This document shows, in pieces, positions 12,358-60,852 of a DNA stretch of 64,000 nt. The stretch lies in the IMG/VR virus record IMGVR_UViG_3300020048_000013; one strand, written 5' to 3'. The translations under genes and the position numbers were made by a program. Under the pieces are notes generated by a model. The model was not told where the DNA came from. It ran no database searches and saw nothing but the letters and a program-made list of their open reading frames with translations. This DNA is from an uncultured virus (IMG/VR IMGVR_UViG_3300020048_000013). Its lineage: Duplodnaviria; Heunggongvirae; Uroviricota; Caudoviricetes. Positions within the stretch are counted from its first letter, which is position 1. Every line of letters begins with the position of its first letter.

Positions 12358-12386
12358 TTGACTTTACTAAAATAAAGTGTTATATT
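12358..12386 (+). promoter_or_regulatory. Sigma70-like promoter TTGACT-17-TATATT
   Basis: Exact 17-nt spacing; same consensus as seven minus-strand promoters. Confidence 0.85.
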
Positions 12387-12416
12387 TCCTGTGTGATTAA
12401 AAAAGGGAGAGATAAA

Positions 12417-12746
12417 ATGATAGGAAGAAAATTAAAATCAGTAAAAAAATTCATCGAAAACATCAGTGATACTGATTACATCGACGAGATAATAGCAAAA
12501 GCAATGAATCACAAATACTACCTGATTAGAAAATGGAAAAATAGCAACGAAGATGAAAAAACTAAAGAGAGAGTAATTAGATACATCGAAAACAGCTACA
12601 AAGGATGCGATGGTAAAGGAACGGAGCACTTAATTAAACTGCACGGAAGAAATAAATACCACGCTGGTTACTCATGGATAATGCAAAAAGGTTGGTTGAG
12701 AATGGGAATAAAAGAAAAAATAAAACTAATAAAAGAGGGGTATTAA
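12417..12746 (+). CDS. Hypothetical basic protein; the only convincing plus-strand gene
   Basis: GGGAGA RBS before ATG 12417; own sigma70-like promoter and terminator. Confidence 0.8.
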   Translation: MIGRKLKSVKKFIENISDTDYIDEIIAKAMNHKYYLIRKWKNSNEDEKTKERVIRYIENSYKGCDGKGTEHLIKLHGRNKYHAGYSWIMQKGWLRMGIKEKIKLIKEGY

Positions 12747-12760
12747 ATACCCCTTTTTTT
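12731..12760. terminator. Bidirectional intrinsic terminator
   Basis: AAAAGAGGGGTAT-TAA-ATACCCCTTTTTTT between convergent genes. Confidence 0.85.
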
Positions 12761-16123: not shown

Positions 16124-17182
16124 TTACCTTTCAAATTTGTTTGTGGGTTTTTGGTTCGTATCTCTCGCTTGTTCTTCGGTGTTATCTATAATATCATGTG
16201 TTGTTATCTCATTATTTATAATATCGTTTGAAATATCCAGCACTAATTCATTTAAATCTTGCAATTCGCTCAGTTGCGGTATTTCGGATATAACTTGACT
16301 TTCTACTTTAATATTACTATTATAATCGTATAATCCAACATTAAATACATAAGACAAGTTTCTATTGAACATTAAATGAGGAGGAGTATCGTTAACATAT
16401 TCTATTTGATATAATTGTTCTAATTTAGGAACCCAAATCAAATCGTTTATTTTTGGAGTTATAGATACAAATTTTCGAATATATATAGTAGCTTCTGATG
16501 GAAGTTCTTCATCTATAATCTCAATTATTTCACTCGGATCACTTGGTTCGCTCGGATCTTGATTTGGAGTAAGAGTTATTTCACTTCTCCATATATATTC
16601 AGTATTTCCTAAACCAGTATTTACTTCTATTTCATTATATAATATAGATGCTACTAAATAATCACTATCATTAGAAGGATTATAACATCCATTTAATGTT
16701 ATAGTATCTCCAGCAGCAATAAAAGAATATAATCTGGTGTCTGTTAAATCTATGTTATAAAAATAAAGAACATTGTCTTGTATAAAAGAACTTTGATTCA
16801 TTATTTCCTGATTTTCAAATGTTCTTTCATCTTCTATACATTCTCTAAAATAACTTGTAGGACAATAATAAGTTATTTCACCTTCGTTTACAAATTGAAA
16901 TCCGCTTTTAGCAAAACCATGCGTTATATTATCTTCAACAACATCAGGATTCCATACCAAAATATTAAATGCTCTATTAAGAACTTTTGTTCTAGATTCT
17001 CCCATAAAAAGATCCACATTAAAGTTCTCAACTCTTATGTATTTTGCTCTGTCACCTCGTATCTCAAGAATATTTCGATAGATAACATCCATCAAATCAA
17101 AATCTTTAGTGTGAGTAGTTTGAGCATCGCTCATACCAAAAGCATTACCATGTGGCGGGAAAGGATTAATTAAGGGAGTCAT
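16124..17182 (-). CDS. gp14: Neck protein gp14-like with an internal insertion
   Basis: LEIRG..KYIRVE...DLFMGE, FAKSGF and PKINDLIWVP...LYQIEYV motifs. Confidence 0.8.
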   Translation of the reverse strand: MTPLINPFPPHGNAFGMSDAQTTHTKDFDLMDVIYRNILEIRGDRAKYIRVENFNVDLFMGESRTKVLNRAFNILVWNPDVVEDNITHGFAKSGFQFVNEGEITYYCPTSYFRECIEDERTFENQEIMNQSSFIQDNVLYFYNIDLTDTRLYSFIAAGDTITLNGCYNPSNDSDYLVASILYNEIEVNTGLGNTEYIWRSEITLTPNQDPSEPSDPSEIIEIIDEELPSEATIYIRKFVSITPKINDLIWVPKLEQLYQIEYVNDTPPHLMFNRNLSYVFNVGLYDYNSNIKVESQVISEIPQLSELQDLNELVLDISNDIINNEITTHDIIDNTEEQARDTNQKPTNKFER

Positions 17183-18390
17183 TATATATCCTTTTTGTTA
17201 TATATCACAAATTTAAAAGCAAAACCGCGATCAAGACACGATTGTTCTTTTAATAAATTTTTTTGTAATTTTTCTGGTTTTTTAGGATTACTGTAAGTCC
17301 AAGTACTTTTAACTTCAATTATTTTATTATCTTTAGGAATATAAAAATCAGGAAAATATCTATGTTTCTTTCCATCTTCTGTATAATACCATATTTTACC
17401 TATAATATTTTGTTTTGGATGTGGTATAATATCTTCCTCTTTATTTCCCAGTTCAAAATACTTATTTAAATACACCCATTCATAACCTTGTAATTTAATT
17501 ACTTTTCCTGATGGTAGATTGTATGGTTTCCATTTATGACTATTTTTTTGTGCTTTATCAAATATTTCCTCATTTTGAGTCGGATTTTCTACTCCATATC
17601 TTTCCATACAAGTCGCTTTAGATTTTTCTTTAACTTTTTCATCTTGAAAAACATTATCTACATTATATCTTTCTTGACATGCCTGTTTAATTTTTTCTTT
17701 ATATTCTTCAGTTTGCATAAACCAATTTGTATTATATTTTTTTTGATTAGTATCAATATGTTTTTGCTTAATCAGTTCTAATTCTTCTTCTGATTTATTT
17801 TTCCAAGTTTCTTTAAATTTATCTTTAAATTCGTTTGTTTGTGAAAAATAATCAACTCCATATTCTTTTTGATTATAATCAATATGTTTCTGCTTGATGT
17901 CATCTAATTCTTCATTAGATTTATTTTTCCAACAATCAGTTACTTTATTTTTTATTTTTTCAGATTTTAATGGAACATCAACTCCCCAATTTCTCATACA
18001 TGTTTCTTTTTTCTTTTGTTTAATATCGTCTGATTGTGAAACATTATCTACATTATATTTTTCTTTTATTACATTATGTATTTTATCTTTCACTGCTTCA
18101 CTTTGAAAAGAACATTCGACTCTAAAATTATTTAAACATGTTTTTATTTTTTTATCCATTATTTCTTTTTTTCTATCTTCTGAATAATTTTTCTTAGTTT
18201 CTGAAATTTTTCTTTTCATTTCGTCCGATTGCGTTATCTCATAAGTTCCATATAACTCAAAATTTCTTTTTCGTCTATCAGCAGTTCTGTTTTCATAAAA
18301 TATTCTTTTGCAATTAATAGAACAATAAGCACGATTAATTATATCAGTGTCATATTCAGCATTACATATTTTACAAATTTTATTATACAT
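17182..18390 (-). CDS. Putative freestanding homing endonuclease (repeat region + C-terminal PD-(D/E)XK domain)
   Basis: N-terminal CxxC..CS..C; seven ~23-aa TCxxxYGVDN-type repeats; RYFPDFY...IIEVKS. Confidence 0.7.
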   Translation of the reverse strand: MYNKICKICNAEYDTDIINRAYCSINCKRIFYENRTADRRKRNFELYGTYEITQSDEMKRKISETKKNYSEDRKKEIMDKKIKTCLNNFRVECSFQSEAVKDKIHNVIKEKYNVDNVSQSDDIKQKKKETCMRNWGVDVPLKSEKIKNKVTDCWKNKSNEELDDIKQKHIDYNQKEYGVDYFSQTNEFKDKFKETWKNKSEEELELIKQKHIDTNQKKYNTNWFMQTEEYKEKIKQACQERYNVDNVFQDEKVKEKSKATCMERYGVENPTQNEEIFDKAQKNSHKWKPYNLPSGKVIKLQGYEWVYLNKYFELGNKEEDIIPHPKQNIIGKIWYYTEDGKKHRYFPDFYIPKDNKIIEVKSTWTYSNPKKPEKLQKNLLKEQSCLDRGFAFKFVIYNKKDI

Positions 18391-30933: not shown

Positions 30934-31389
30934 TTATTCATACATAACCCACACACCATTTATCAATTTTGAATGTAATTCGATGTGCGGATAATCCATA
31001 AAATTATCATTATACTCATAATCGCCATTAAAATCCATTCCGACTCTTATTCTTATTCCATATTTGCCGAGAGCATATCCTTGAATAAATCGAACTAAAT
31101 CTCCAAATCTTTTATCATTTTTCCAATCAATTGGATATGGAGCAATATCTATTGCCAAACTTGGTTGTTTGTTGTGTTTGCTATTTGGAAATTTTAATTT
31201 AGATTTTCCTTCACTAAATGCTTTATTCTGAGAAATTTCGTCTCTATATCCGCAAGTTATTGTAAAATCTCTTAATTGAATAATATCATTCATTATCATT
31301 TGTAAATCTGGATGGCAGGTTAATAACTCTGATGCAGATTTTTTTCCAAATTTATATGGTTTTGTATTAAACATTTTTTCACCCATCAA
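30934..31389 (-). CDS. Endolysin, M15-family (L-Ala-D-Glu type) peptidase
   Basis: CHPDLQ, GYR...Q, SKHN..PSLAIDIAP and DYPHIEL; late promoter upstream. Confidence 0.85.
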   Translation of the reverse strand: MMGEKMFNTKPYKFGKKSASELLTCHPDLQMIMNDIIQLRDFTITCGYRDEISQNKAFSEGKSKLKFPNSKHNKQPSLAIDIAPYPIDWKNDKRFGDLVRFIQGYALGKYGIRIRVGMDFNGDYEYNDNFMDYPHIELHSKLINGVWVMYE

Positions 31390-31399
31390 TATTTAATAT

Positions 31400-31407
31400 T
31401 ATTTATA
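31400..31407 (-). promoter_or_regulatory. T4-type late promoter TATAAATA
   Basis: Between the terminator and the endolysin. Confidence 0.75.
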
Positions 31408-31417
31408 AAAATGGAAA

Positions 31418-31497
31418 ATAAAAAACCCTCTAATCTCTTAGAGGGTCATCAATCATTAACGTGGGAATGATCCAAAACATTAAAAAGAACCAAACCT
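31418..31497 (-). ncRNA. Candidate ~80-nt small RNA
   Basis: Bounded by a consensus promoter (31504-31532) and a strong terminator (31420-31446); internal hairpin; near the Hfq-like gene. Confidence 0.55.
31420..31446 (-). terminator. Intrinsic terminator
   Basis: ACCCUCUAA-GAGA-UUAGAGGGU followed by a U-tract. Confidence 0.9.
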
Positions 31498-31503
31498 TTA
31501 ACA

Positions 31504-31532
31504 AATATACACTAATTTTTTTATTTTGTCAA
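31504..31532 (-). promoter_or_regulatory. Sigma70-like promoter TTGACA-17-TATATT
   Basis: Exact consensus with an upstream A-tract (AAAAACAC). Confidence 0.85.
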
Positions 31533-31539
31533 GTGTTTT

Positions 31540-31956
31540 TTAATTATTTTCTAGAATTTTTTTCAACTCTGCTTTTTTCATGCCCTGAGTATTTATTCCC
31601 ATATCGGCAACTTTTTTCTTCATTTCGAGAAATTCCGCTAATCCGTTTTTTTTCTTGGAATCTGTTTCGGCATCAAGTACAATCGTCTCTACTCTAAATT
31701 TATCATCGTTTTTTTCTTTTTTCGGAATTGTTTGTTCGCTTGTTTTAACAACAGTTTCAACAACAGTTTCTACTTCATTCTTTTTTTCTTCTGTTGCAAT
31801 TTTGAAATATTGTTTAAAACTTCTATATACTTTTTCTTCGATGTCGATGACTTTATTAGGAACGAGATGATATAATTTATCAAATGCCGTTAGATAATAA
31901 GGTCCTTTTTTAGTTTTTCTTTCGAGAACTATAACTTTTATTGTTTTATTTTCCAT
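31540..31956 (-). CDS. Hypothetical protein (short C-terminal helical tail, possibly SAP/HeH-like)
   Basis: 138 aa, translationally coupled to the Hfq-like gene; ends MGINTQGMKKAELKKIL. Confidence 0.65.
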   Translation of the reverse strand: MENKTIKVIVLERKTKKGPYYLTAFDKLYHLVPNKVIDIEEKVYRSFKQYFKIATEEKKNEVETVVETVVKTSEQTIPKKEKNDDKFRVETIVLDAETDSKKKNGLAEFLEMKKKVADMGINTQGMKKAELKKILENN

Positions 31957-32176
31957 TTTTCTGTCCTTCGTTTTTTTGTTTGATTGTATAATACGAATCG
32001 TGTCTTACTAAACTAACCATCGTCTGTTGAGTGTTTTTGTTATAACACGATATAACTAAAGCCACATCATCCCACAAAGAAATTTTTCCTGTCAATGTAA
32101 CTCCGTTTCTTAAAAATATTTGTAGAATTTCTTTTTTATATTGTTCTAAAAATGTATTGCTTACTGGTGATAACAT
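31946..32176 (-). CDS. hfq: Hfq-like (Sm/LSm fold) RNA chaperone
   Basis: NTFLEQ...IFLRNGVTLTGKISLWDD..LVI matches Hfq Sm1 (DPFL...IYLVNGIKLQGQIESFDQ); Sm2 is divergent (LVRHDSYYTI); AGGAG RBS. Confidence 0.75.
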   Translation of the reverse strand: MLSPVSNTFLEQYKKEILQIFLRNGVTLTGKISLWDDVALVISCYNKNTQQTMVSLVRHDSYYTIKQKNEGQKNGK

Positions 32177-38241: not shown

Positions 38242-38270
38242 AATATAACAAAATAATTATTCAATGTCAA
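38242..38270 (-). promoter_or_regulatory. Sigma70-like promoter TTGACA-17-TATATT
   Basis: Exact consensus. Confidence 0.85.
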
Positions 38271-38792: not shown

Positions 38793-38992
38793 TTTTTTTC
38801 TCCTTTAATTTTTTTCCAACATTTTCTACAATAATATTCTATTGATTCTCTTGTAAATGCCGTATCAGGAACAACATTTATGTGTATTTTTTCTATATCG
38901 TTGGATATAAACTTTCCACAAGAACAACATTTTGGATTATTATAGTTTGATAATTTCATTCGGGTCTCCGCTTGTATACATTTCCAATCCAA
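38789..38992 (-). CDS. Small zinc-binding protein
   Basis: CCSC...CRKC; start uncertain. Confidence 0.55.
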   Translation of the reverse strand: MDWKCIQAETRMKLSNYNNPKCCSCGKFISNDIEKIHINVVPDTAFTRESIEYYCRKCWKKIKGEKK

Positions 38993-40076
38993 GCTCTTTA
39001 TTAATACTCATTAAAAATGATTCTTTCTTTGTGTGTGTTTGTAAAGTGTTATCTATTATAAGTGAATATCCTCCATGGGGTTTTATATCCATACAGTTTA
39101 TTACTAAATATTTTTTTACATTCGGTCTAAATTTTTCTTTTTCGATTGCATATTTTATTAAATCTATATTCAAAATACCAGTTTTAAAATTGCCTTGCCA
39201 CTCATTATATTCATTATGTTCGTGAGGATTATTGATGTATTTGGTTTCTTCTAAAAGATAATCATTTCCGTTACCATGTTTTGTTAAATATGATCTTGTT
39301 ACTAAATATATTTCTGTTTCATGAATTCCGCTAATCCACAAATTTTTAACACCCAAATCGGATCTCGTGACATTAGGGAACATTCCATTATGTTGGTCTA
39401 ATAATAATCCCTGAGAACTTTCGTATATAATAGTATCAAAAATTTTACTCAATTTTGCAATACCATTCATTTCTATTACATTTTTATTCGACGTAAGATA
39501 ATTAGTTATATAATAACAAGCACTCATAAAATATTCTAATTCGTCTTTAACCTTAGCTTTAATCACTTCGTCAAAATTATAATACTGAAAGAAATTATTT
39601 AATTTTTGTTTTACTATAAGAGGATATTTTAAATCCTGATATAATAAAGAATAAAAATCTTCTTCTCTCTGCATTGTTTTTCCGTAACCCATACCGCAAG
39701 TGCCGTCTGATAAATTTTTATTGCAATTGCGGTTGGCATATACTTCAAAAGGCGTAGTGACTGGACATGATGGATTTATATATATTGTTGGATTTATATT
39801 TTGTAAATTTAATACTTTAAGTTCGTTGACGAATGATAATGGATTAAATGCACATAAATGGGACCAATATGTAGGAATGTTTTGTAAAGTTCCGCTACCA
39901 AAACTGGAAAAAATATGTTTTTTTCCATTATATCTTACTTCATGTCCTGCCTGTGATCCTCCAGAATATCTAACGACTATACATTTTTCATTTTTATATT
40001 TTTCACATAATGACGATACTACTTTTCCTTTTCCTTCGTCACCAAATCCAAGTCCAATCACTACTACGTTTTTCAT
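38940..40076 (-). CDS. purA: Divergent adenylosuccinate synthetase-like protein (PurA type, not PurZ)
   Basis: GLGFGDEGKG, RYSGGSQAGH, GTCGMG, ESSQGLLLDQ, PNVTRS and TRSYLTKHGNG. Confidence 0.8.
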   Translation of the reverse strand: MKNVVVIGLGFGDEGKGKVVSSLCEKYKNEKCIVVRYSGGSQAGHEVRYNGKKHIFSSFGSGTLQNIPTYWSHLCAFNPLSFVNELKVLNLQNINPTIYINPSCPVTTPFEVYANRNCNKNLSDGTCGMGYGKTMQREEDFYSLLYQDLKYPLIVKQKLNNFFQYYNFDEVIKAKVKDELEYFMSACYYITNYLTSNKNVIEMNGIAKLSKIFDTIIYESSQGLLLDQHNGMFPNVTRSDLGVKNLWISGIHETEIYLVTRSYLTKHGNGNDYLLEETKYINNPHEHNEYNEWQGNFKTGILNIDLIKYAIEKEKFRPNVKKYLVINCMDIKPHGGYSLIIDNTLQTHTKKESFLMSINKELGLEMYTSGDPNEIIKL

Positions 40077-45722: not shown

Positions 45723-45759
45723 AATATAAATAAAAAAAAGGCTCAAGTCAAGCCTTTTT
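45723..45759 (-). promoter_or_regulatory. Sigma70-like promoter TTGACT-17-TATATT overlapping a terminator hairpin
   Basis: AAAAAGGCTTGACTTGAGCCTTTTTTTT contains the -35 box. Confidence 0.8.
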
Positions 45760-53406: not shown

Positions 53407-53444
53407 AATATAAATTAAAAAACTCTTTTTGTCAAGAGTTTTTT
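53407..53444 (-). promoter_or_regulatory. Sigma70-like promoter TTGACA-17-TATATT overlapping a terminator hairpin
   Basis: AAAAAACTCTTGACAAAAAGAGTTTTTT contains the -35 box. Confidence 0.8.
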
Positions 53445-54594: not shown

Positions 54595-56031
54595 TTATAA
54601 ATTTATATCTATTTTTTCCATTGGAAATTCTTCTTCTGTGTATAATTTAACTCTCGATTTATAATGATCCATCAAATAATTTTCATAATATCTCTCAGTA
54701 TAACTTAAATTATCTACTATATCATGAACTATAAGAATGTCTTTATTCTGATGTAATCTGAGTCCTCTACCTATACTTTGAGCAGTTCTTACAAAGCTTT
54801 TTGTGCTACTTGCAAATATTATATTATGTATGTTCGGAGCATCTATACCAATACTGAAAGTTCCGTAACTTGCAAGAATAACCACATTATCATTTTCTGC
54901 TATTATGCTTCTTGCAATTTCTCTATCTTCTCTCGAAACCGATCCATCAATATATATTATTTTTTTATCTTTCAAAACTCTTTTAAACAAATCAAGTAGA
55001 ACTTTTCCGTGTTTTTCTATATGCTGAAATAATACCAAAGTATTTTTATTACATTCGTTTTTAATAAGATTTGCTATATAATTATTTCTTATTTCATTAC
55101 CTTCTATATAATTTATCTCAGCATGATAATCTTTATTGAAATTTTCACAAGCAAACAATCTTTCTTTGTCGGGATAATTTAAAAATCTTATTTTTACTAA
55201 TAACGGAGATAATATATTCTGTTCTTTTAATTCTATATATGTTCTATATATTACTGGTTCTCCAAGATATGCAACGACAGTATAATAATCTGCAGTATTA
55301 TCTTTTACAATAGTTCCAGTTGTTCCTATACGATATTCTGCCTTTGTTAATTTAGACAATATTCCCGATATTGATTTGCCATCGGCTTCATGAGCTTCAT
55401 CTACAATAACACAATCGAAAACATTTATTTGATCTTCTGGTATTTTATATATACTTTGCCATGTAGATATGATAAGAAATTCGTCGAAAGTTTTTTCAAT
55501 TCCGCTATAAATACATTTAACACCAGTATCCATATCGGTCAATCCATATTTTTTCAAATCATTATACATCTGAGTAATCAAACCAAGCTTTGATACAACA
55601 AGCAACATTTTTTTGTTTACTTTTCTCATATAACATATTAATAGGTAGATTATGAAAGATTTTCCTGTTCCAGTTTTACTTATTATTGTAAGATTTCTTT
55701 TTTTCAGAGCATCGAAAAATCCTTCTATCTGAAAATCTCTTGGTGGAAATGGCTTTGGAAGATCTTCTACAAATTCTAATAATTTATCTTCGTTCAATTC
55801 TCTTTCTAAAGTAAAATCTATCGAGTATGTATAATTTGCTTTTTTAATATATTCTATTATTCTTGGAACAAGTCCGATTGGACATTTGCCTTTTTTGAAA
55901 AAAGGAATTTTTCCATCCCACCATCCATTTTTGAATTTTGGACTAAACCAATACTTATCAGTATAAAATTTTAATAAATTATCCAATTCATTATAAATGA
56001 ACATAGTATCGCATATGACTGCGACTTCCAT
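54595..56031 (-). CDS. uvsW: SF2 helicase UvsW
   Basis: WWDGKI, PRDFQ, TGTGKS, STWQSIY, VDEAH, GTTGT and QSIGRGLR. Confidence 0.93.
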   Translation of the reverse strand: MEVAVICDTMFIYNELDNLLKFYTDKYWFSPKFKNGWWDGKIPFFKKGKCPIGLVPRIIEYIKKANYTYSIDFTLERELNEDKLLEFVEDLPKPFPPRDFQIEGFFDALKKRNLTIISKTGTGKSFIIYLLICYMRKVNKKMLLVVSKLGLITQMYNDLKKYGLTDMDTGVKCIYSGIEKTFDEFLIISTWQSIYKIPEDQINVFDCVIVDEAHEADGKSISGILSKLTKAEYRIGTTGTIVKDNTADYYTVVAYLGEPVIYRTYIELKEQNILSPLLVKIRFLNYPDKERLFACENFNKDYHAEINYIEGNEIRNNYIANLIKNECNKNTLVLFQHIEKHGKVLLDLFKRVLKDKKIIYIDGSVSREDREIARSIIAENDNVVILASYGTFSIGIDAPNIHNIIFASSTKSFVRTAQSIGRGLRLHQNKDILIVHDIVDNLSYTERYYENYLMDHYKSRVKLYTEEEFPMEKIDINL

Positions 56032-56913: not shown

Positions 56914-56952
56914 AATATAATATAAAATAGGGATTTTGTCAACCCCTATTTT
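56914..56952 (-). promoter_or_regulatory. Sigma70-like promoter TTGACA-17-TATATT overlapping a hairpin
   Basis: AAAATAGGGGTTGACAAAATCCCTATTTT contains the -35 box. Confidence 0.75.
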
Positions 56953-59763: not shown

Positions 59764-59769
59764 AACAAA

Positions 59770-59812
59770 AAGTCCTTTTTACTTTATTTATAAAAATTAG
59801 TAAAAAGGACTT
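59770..59812 (-). promoter_or_regulatory. 14-bp hairpin with late promoter TATAAATA in the loop and the RBS in the 3' arm
   Basis: AAGTCCTTTTTACT-AATTTTTATAAATAA-AGTAAAAAGGACTT-TTTGTTATG. Confidence 0.8.
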
Positions 59813-60776: not shown

Positions 60777-60852
60777 ATTTACCTCTTGTATTATCGTATC
60801 TTATTATCTCAACACATTGAACTATAGTTCTTTTGAGATTTCTGATACTTTT

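Follow-up and report, generated by a model that had tools for sequence, protein, structure and literature searches.

A promoter-to-terminator unit without a credible gene at a module border of an uncultured phage: candidate small RNA or atypical PeSL unit

Results

Gene content and layout of the locus

The window analyzed here is the whole stretch of 64,000 nucleotides of IMG/VR record IMGVR_UViG_3300020048_000013, an uncultured virus of the Caudoviricetes. It has a G+C content of 27–32%, comes from a parent contig of 197,135 bp, and carries all of its credible genes on the minus strand except for one plus-strand gene near 12.4 kb. The replication genes encode a UvsX-like recombinase, a clamp loader, a gp32-like SSB, a DNA polymerase, and a gp41/DnaB-type helicase that is 27–29% identical to the helicases of T4-like cyanophages. 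The structural genes encode a baseplate wedge, a tail-sheath stabilizer, and a head-tail adaptor. Overall, the window reads as a distant T4-like myovirus.

Further features lie elsewhere in the window. A homing-endonuclease-like gene (17182–18390, minus strand; phrog_3339 and phrog_12131) sits between structural genes. At 38940–40076 (minus strand) there is an adenylosuccinate-synthetase homologue matching phrog_1211 (“2-aminooxy adenylosuccinate synthetase”, 2e-47); its product is taken to be PurZ-like, and adenine might be replaced in the DNA of this phage, with a bearing on promoter recognition. The 76-nt gap at 60777–60852 (minus strand), upstream of the gp32-like SSB gene, contains an inverted repeat (TCTCAA ... 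TTGAGA) reminiscent of the T4 gene 32 translational operator.

The locus under study is a short unit on the minus strand. It and its neighbors comprise the following features, in the order of the minus strand.

31946..32176, minus strand: divergent Hfq-like protein of 76 aa, in the upstream operon
31540..31956, minus strand: 138-aa partner gene, last of the early/replication operon
31542–31540, minus strand: stop codon of the 138-aa ORF
31504..31539, minus strand: early sigma-70-type promoter (A-tract and CAC, TTGACA, TATATT; 11/12 consensus positions)
31532–31527, minus strand: -35 element TTGACA, followed after a 17-nt spacer by the -10 element TATATT at 31509–31504
about 31497, minus strand: predicted transcription start, placed 7 nt past the -10 element
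31415..31497, minus strand: predicted primary transcript of ~80 nt, with its end placed at the U-tail
31448..31497, minus strand: U-rich body of 50 nt, without significant structure
31430..31480, minus strand: 16-codon ORF MFWIIPTLMIDDPLRD and its stop, which lies inside the 3′ arm of the terminator
31415..31447, minus strand: intrinsic terminator with a 10-bp stem, a GAGA loop, and a tail of six U, an A, and four U
31400..31407, minus strand: TATAAATA, a T4-type late-promoter-like box for the lysin gene
30934..31374, minus strand: endolysin, first gene of the late/structural block (phrog_465, E 8.6e-29)

The -35 element begins 7 nt past the stop codon of the Hfq-like/partner operon, and the terminator hairpin begins ~50–55 nt downstream of the predicted start. 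No credible gene lies between promoter and terminator on the minus strand. An earlier note on this DNA had described a TTGACA-17-TATATT promoter leading through about 80 nt to a GAGA-loop terminator with a U-tail, and both coordinates and sequence agree with that description. The stem had been given as 9 bp; it has 10, with 31447–31438 pairing with 31433–31424 through nine Watson-Crick pairs and one G-U pair. The promoter, the terminator, and the lack of a gene between them are thus confirmed, and from this combination one would naturally predict a discrete early transcript of ~80 nt. That the unit is transcribed, where the ends of its RNA lie, that the RNA is noncoding, and any regulatory role it has are what we infer from the DNA.

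No second terminator is present between the Hfq-like/partner operon and position 31447, so the terminator is common to the operon and the unit. Beyond it the TATAAATA box is followed by a Shine-Dalgarno (SD) sequence and the endolysin ATG at 31374, and the head-tail adaptor, baseplate, and tail genes come after the endolysin. The unit lies exactly where the replication block, upstream of it, gives way to the lysis/structural block. Two DNA sequencing runs from one study carry identical sequence and two others carry short fragments; among the runs carrying the window sequence, no informative variants are listed for 31400–31540.

The early promoter class

The pattern TTGACA-N16-18-TATAWT occurs five times in the window against 0.48 copies expected, a count reached by none of 100 shuffles. 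With one mismatch or fewer, 10 copies are found against 2.28 expected, and again 0/100 shuffles reach that number. All five perfect copies are on the minus (gene) strand and have a spacer of 17 nt and TATATT as the -10 element. The statement in the earlier note that every other copy in the window leads to a ribosome binding site and a gene is borne out for the perfect copies, since the other four are each followed by an SD and then an ATG 22–26 nt past the -10 element. Both intergenic one-mismatch copies (44264 and 45751) also lead to an SD and a gene. The order of stop codon, A-run, CAC, and TTGACA is common to the orphan promoter and the copies at 38270 and 63231. In the contigs of two relatives, introduced below, the motif occurs 9 and 7 times (0 for a reversed-pattern control), and downstream of 12 of these 16 copies, 20–31 nt past the -10 element, there is an SD with an ORF of 30 aa or longer. 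The promoter class is real, and the orphan is confirmed as the one window copy leading to a terminator in place of a gene.

Composite terminator/promoter units are found on the minus strand at 45723–45755, at 56914–56946, and, more weakly, at 53407–53438. In these units, which contain three other copies of the promoter, the -35 element lies in the loop of a hairpin (45755–45731, 56946–56922, and 53438–53423, respectively), and the T-run of the hairpin forms the spacer of the promoter. By analogy, the promoter family can be called PeSL-like, given its resemblance to the PeSLs (promoter-early stem-loops) of T4-type phages (Arbiol, Comeau et al. 2010, PMC2839356; Comeau et al. 2014, PMC4122927). 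PeSLs shuffle small genes in the variable regions of these phages, and their stem-loops keep early transcription out of late virion genes, according to the available part of PMC2839356; composite promoter/terminator cassettes of T4-type phages also appear in the available part of PMC4122927. The stem-loop is described there as extending from upstream of the -35 element to just before the transcription start, with the SD and the gene next (PMC2839356, in the part available); a stem-loop of this kind within the promoter is what we find at 45755, at 56946, and, more weakly, at 53438.

The orphan unit resembles the PeSLs of that account (PMC2839356, as excerpted) in having a sigma-70-like early promoter with an AT-rich upstream region directly at an upstream stop codon, and in joining a terminating stem-loop and a promoter in a variable region where relatives gain and lose small genes. 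Unlike the PeSLs so described, its stem-loop lies ~50–55 nt inside the transcript, such that the RNA of the promoter itself is terminated, and the unit has no downstream gene with an SD but only a 16-codon ORF with a poorly placed one (PMC2839356, same part).

The only plus-strand gene of the window has an arrangement of its own: a TTGACT-17-TATATT promoter at 12358–12386, an SD, a gene of ~110 aa, and a two-way terminator at 12729–12760. Located inside the structural block, this stretch (12358–12760) looks like an inserted accessory cassette. In the relative L023, the promoter at 55266–55294 (minus strand) is a perfect early promoter. No ORF reaching 30 aa follows it, just one of 11 codons that has a good SD, and ~135–165 nt later there is a hairpin with a T-run terminator, facing convergent genes. 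This is another early unit of the orphan kind in the phage group. At loci L053 (L023 3409–3450) and L055, the L023 phage also has two early promoters with long leaders (165 nt and 78 nt) and a common 5′ motif, TCCTYCTGTTC ... GAAAT ... TAGTGG, which may be a repeated leader element.

The module border in relatives

Scans of viral contigs and metagenomes yielded two syntenic contigs, L023 and L029. By the estimate of the record, one of the two is 40% complete and the other 28%. The gene order in both is helicase, small ORF, Hfq-like, partner, lysin, and head-tail adaptor. At the L029 junction, the stop codon is followed by 17 nt, a terminator hairpin (-13.6 kcal/mol) with its tail, the TATAAATA box, and the lysin, and there is no early promoter. 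At the L023 junction, the stop codon is followed by 18 nt, a homologous terminator (-12.5 kcal/mol), a TTGACA-17-TATATT promoter, and a 165-nt leader, downstream of which ~7 small ORFs (2.2 kb) precede TATAAATA and the endolysin. Both relatives (2/2) have at this junction a terminator whose tail is that of the window terminator. Over the segment that begins with the terminator tail and ends with the late box, the window matches L029 at 31 of 35 positions; the stem of the window terminator differs from the stems of the relatives. The endolysin is 79% identical to its L023 homologue. The L029 lysin differs in kind from the M15-type enzyme of the window and is taken, judging by its sequence, for a GH108-type muramidase.

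The RNA body is absent from the contigs of both relatives, which contain only matches to the promoter part, elsewhere. The earlier note had named beforehand a lack of conservation next to hfq homologs as evidence against a small RNA, and neither syntenic relative (0/2) has the body or a promoter in a like place. This non-conservation weighs only moderately because both relatives are distant, their Hfq-like proteins being 43% identical. The 165-nt leader of L023 was considered as a counterpart of the body and rejected; it has no similarity to the body, no Rfam match, and no significant fold over its whole length (z -0.31).

As the relatives keep the terminator and the late box without the RNA, the promoter and body, ~92 nt ahead of the terminator, are a lineage-specific insert at a gene-shuffling hot spot. 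The conserved core consists of the stop codon, the terminator, the late promoter, and the lysin. The insertions in the window and in L023 look like independent events at this hot spot. What the window holds is, by this comparison, probably a self-contained early transcription unit specific to its phage lineage, and its RNA is at present an unconserved prediction.

Other searches for relatives gave little. A scan of viral contigs with the endolysin returned 22 loci, all at 51% identity or less and none syntenic, while a scan with the pattern GINTxGMKK returned 12 loci, two of them with an Hfq-like gene. Nothing was found in the metagenome scans for relatives, a homologous-protein search returned only the query itself, and among 50,697 phage records tblastn produced no match to either the Hfq-like or the partner protein.

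Structure and composition of the predicted RNA

The terminator folds at -14.5 kcal/mol (z -4.4), and none of 200 shuffles is as stable; matches to a loose terminator pattern, taken as a class, show no enrichment (5 in 16 kb, with 3.7 expected). The whole predicted transcript has a minimum free energy of -22.1 kcal/mol (z -2.9), a signal due entirely to the terminator. For the 50-nt body the folding energy is -7.4 kcal/mol (z -0.19), a stability equaled by 76/200 shuffles, so the internal GAUCAUU/AAUGAUU hairpin drawn in the earlier note is not significant.

The U-rich 5′ part described in the same note does stand out. The body has a T minus A value of +14, against a strand mean of -6 (sd 7), which places it in the top 0.43% of 50-nt windows on the same strand. 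The minus strand is otherwise A-rich (41.6% A), and the only other large region as T-rich as the body is the plus-strand gene. In composition the body looks like the antisense of a typical phage message, or else like a hydrophobic coding sequence. Its reverse complement does read GUGGGA-AUG-AUC-CAA-AAC, like a translation start region, as had been pointed out. The antisense target that this reading had been thought to hint at did not emerge from the window: against 80 phage translation-start regions the best RNAduplex pairing of the body is -23.6 kcal/mol (shuffle mean -25.8), 82 of 100 shuffled RNAs pair with these regions as well or better, and no run complementary to the body within the window is longer than 11 nt.

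No known RNA family was recognized. Rfam at gathering thresholds gave 0 matches across the whole window; in E-value mode over 351 nt, the best score was 23.7 bits against a threshold of 60, and all scores were far below threshold. Neither a tRNA nor a tmRNA was predicted by ARAGORN. With a 4-kb query, megablast found nothing in the 50,697 phage records. A distant blastn search with the 131-nt unit matched 79 of these records, none covering 80% of the query, and among the matches listed query coverage is at most 34%.

The Hfq-like protein and its partner

The protein encoded upstream had been called a phage Hfq. Kinship with Hfq is supported: a profile of the nine-sequence family has 34 matches in the PDB at E ≤ 0.01, all of them Hfq (best 1.8e-8), and all nine members match PF17209 at E ≤ 0.01. 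It is not a plain Hfq, however, as the protein alone scores 23.4 bits against Pfam Hfq (PF17209; E 4.6e-5), below the cut-off of 27. HMMER against 1.84 billion representatives found only seven relatives at E ≤ 0.001. The neighbor thus appears to be a genuine but rare and divergent relative of Hfq. The phrases phage-encoded Hfq, phage Hfq, and viral Hfq were absent from the 15 top-ranked of 151 papers.

In an HMMER alignment to solved Hfq, read by eye, the Hfq-like protein has S/V/H/D at the positions of Q8, F42, K56, and H57 (E. coli numbering), residues that form the proximal uridine pocket gripping the 3′ tails of sRNAs. Since these residues are missing, a partnership that depends on the U-tail of the RNA, and with it any dedicated partnership of the RNA with the phage Hfq-like protein, is doubtful. 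The partner gene adjoins the Hfq-like gene downstream in the window and in both relatives, with a conserved C-terminal block around GINTxGMKK. By eye its product resembles an HeH-like motif, with no such match in Pfam.

The putative late promoter

The sequence TATAAATA corresponds to the T4 late-promoter consensus. Its overall number, 25 copies on the two strands together where 23 are expected, shows no enrichment, but its placement is strongly nonrandom: 11 of the 19 minus-strand copies lie 8–45 nt upstream of one of 81 start codons, where random placement predicts 0.89 and reaches a maximum of 6 in 2000 trials. The start-proximal copies occur in both the structural and the replication halves of the window, and their placement suggests T4-type late promoters. 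No gp55-like sigma factor was seen in the window. A TATAAATA box also precedes the lysin in L023. Most likely the endolysin has its own late promoter after the terminator, and given this conserved box the early promoter is not needed for the downstream genes. Elsewhere on the minus strand, at 59765–59809, an 11-bp hairpin with TATAAATA in its 15-nt loop is followed by a T-run just upstream of a 70-aa gene, in what appears to be a merged terminator and late-type promoter.

Discussion

Comparison with known small RNA units

Precedents for the layout of the unit exist in DapZ and MicL, Hfq-associated sRNAs with their own promoter at the end of an operon and a terminator in common with the mRNA, as described in the available part of PMC9438474. 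Like them, the orphan unit has its promoter at the end of an upstream coding sequence and uses the Rho-independent terminator of the mRNA, and its predicted length of ~80 nt is close to the 80 nt of MicL (PMC9438474, in part). Unlike the orphan unit, DapZ and MicL have conserved promoters and seeds as well as demonstrated targets and Hfq binding (PMC9438474, same part); the orphan lies in a virulent-type phage and yielded neither conservation nor a target in our searches. As far as its letters can tell, it has the promoter and terminator of an Hfq-type trans-acting sRNA, while conservation of the seed was seen in neither of the two distant syntenic relatives.

Among phage and prophage sRNAs, DicF and AsxR/AgvB belong to temperate phages and prophages (PMC12197685, in the part available). 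They too are small promoter-to-terminator RNA units in a phage genome (PMC12197685, same part), but they have no sequence or Rfam relation to the orphan unit. That review (PMC12197685) nowhere uses the terms “phage T4,” “lytic phage,” or “Hfq-like.”

Competing explanations

The earlier reading of the unit as an Hfq-dependent sRNA survives in part. The prediction of an early transcript stands, and DapZ and MicL provide precedents for the layout; conservation, the internal hairpin, the phage target, and the uridine-pocket residues speak against it. We tentatively favor the broader reading in which the unit produces an early noncoding RNA of ~80 nt whose U-rich stretch may serve for pairing. It is the most likely of the explanations considered, and a scar without function is nearly as likely. 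The orphan promoter keeps the full upstream motif of the gene-driving copies, which we count in favor of the noncoding RNA. Against it, an ATG at the canonical distance from the -10 element and an SD-like AAGG suggest a degenerate gene cassette. Such a scar would be a mobile early-promoter cassette whose gene was lost or never arrived, so that the promoter and the remnants of a leader and an ORF stand ahead of the terminator already resident there, with an RNA that is made and has no function. It is a possible explanation, if a somewhat unlikely one. At the same junction L023 has an early promoter and ~7 small ORFs and L029 has nothing, and three composite hairpin/promoter units in the window resemble the gene-shuffling PeSLs described in the available part of PMC2839356. 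The AAGG and the ATG, 23 nt past the -10 element, mimic a gene-driving leader, and the body came without structure, target, or conservation; the 16-codon ORF could be the stub of the lost cargo gene. Several properties fit a scar poorly, however. The promoter has not decayed, with 11/12 positions and the full upstream motif in place, and simple PeSL-PeSL recombination would give one composite unit, not a promoter, 55 nt, and a terminator. The terminator stem is unlike that of the relatives, so the promoter-body-terminator segment may have come as one module. The marked U-richness is also unlike a remnant of a gene in the sense orientation, unless that gene was hydrophobic.

More specific roles for the unit appear less probable. 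An sRNA dedicated to the phage Hfq-like protein of the adjacent upstream operon would draw on a neighbor that is a genuine Hfq-family protein, a terminator in common with its operon, a U-tail, and a U-rich body, but both relatives keep the Hfq-like/partner pair without the RNA, and the positions aligned to the uridine pocket read S/V/H/D in place of Q/F/K/H; we regard this version as unlikely. The 16-codon ORF with a weak ribosome binding site that had been proposed as an alternative is indeed present at 31480–31430, and the RNA could be the mRNA of a micro-peptide, either MFWIIPTLMIDDPLRD or a 24-codon version made from read-through transcripts of the operon. Its ATG at 31480 is 23 nt past the -10 element, within the 22–26 nt of the gene-driving copies, hydrophobic codons would account for the T-richness, and the ORF adjoins the lysis gene. 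Yet no SD lies at a working distance, the sole SD-like AAGG ending 14 nt upstream of the ATG; with 10 residues, the hydrophobic stretch could not span a membrane; the 24-codon version starts inside the -10 element and lacks an SD; and by an estimate from base composition an open frame this long arises by chance in about one in four such stretches. A micro-peptide is accordingly quite improbable. In phage lambda, the pR′-tR′ 6S RNA unit makes a short terminated transcript directly upstream of the lysis and structural genes. The orphan unit, with its strong promoter and short terminated RNA ahead of same-strand late genes, mirrors the layout of that late operon, and control of the late genes in cis, as an antiterminated unit of this kind or as an attenuator of the endolysin, was weighed on these grounds. 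We consider it very unlikely, as the lysin has its own conserved TATAAATA box past the terminator, L029 has the terminator and late box without the early promoter, and no antiterminator family was recognized in the neighboring genes. A transcription-primed replication origin of the T4 oriF type is the least probable of all: the cumulative GC skew is monotonic through the site, and nothing specific favors an origin.

A possible mechanism

Should the noncoding RNA reading hold, a PeSL-like early promoter of host sigma-70 type would transcribe ~80 nt into the operon's own terminator. As a conserved insulator, this terminator would separate the replication module from the TATAAATA-driven late module of lysis and structural genes. 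The unit would yield an abundant early noncoding RNA whose first 50 nt are U-rich and unstructured and are followed by a stable terminator hairpin and a U-tail. The biogenesis of this RNA would be like that of DapZ or MicL, from its own promoter at the end of an operon to a common terminator. If the RNA acts, its U-rich stretch would pair with A-rich regions in mRNAs of the phage or the host, helped probably by the host RNA machinery and not by the phage Hfq-like protein.

A bolder version, to which we give only a slim chance, is that of a riboregulator at birth. Here a mobile early-promoter cassette would have entered the 3′ end of the Hfq-like/partner operon and taken over the terminator there, and a U-rich RNA of ~80 nt, made from the first minutes of infection, would silence A-rich start regions of the host or the phage, possibly with the phage Hfq-like protein as chaperone.

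Implications

The unit is best described as a candidate phage sRNA or an atypical PeSL unit. Were its RNA functional, a T4-like phage of virulent type would have a rare candidate riboregulator beside a phage-encoded relative of Hfq, and the unit would show a mobile promoter turning the 3′ end of an operon into a new sRNA gene. The present value of the locus is mainly architectural. It reveals a conserved border of terminator and late promoter between two modules, and a PeSL-like promoter family in a group of uncultured freshwater phages, in which early cassettes are gained and lost at the module border.
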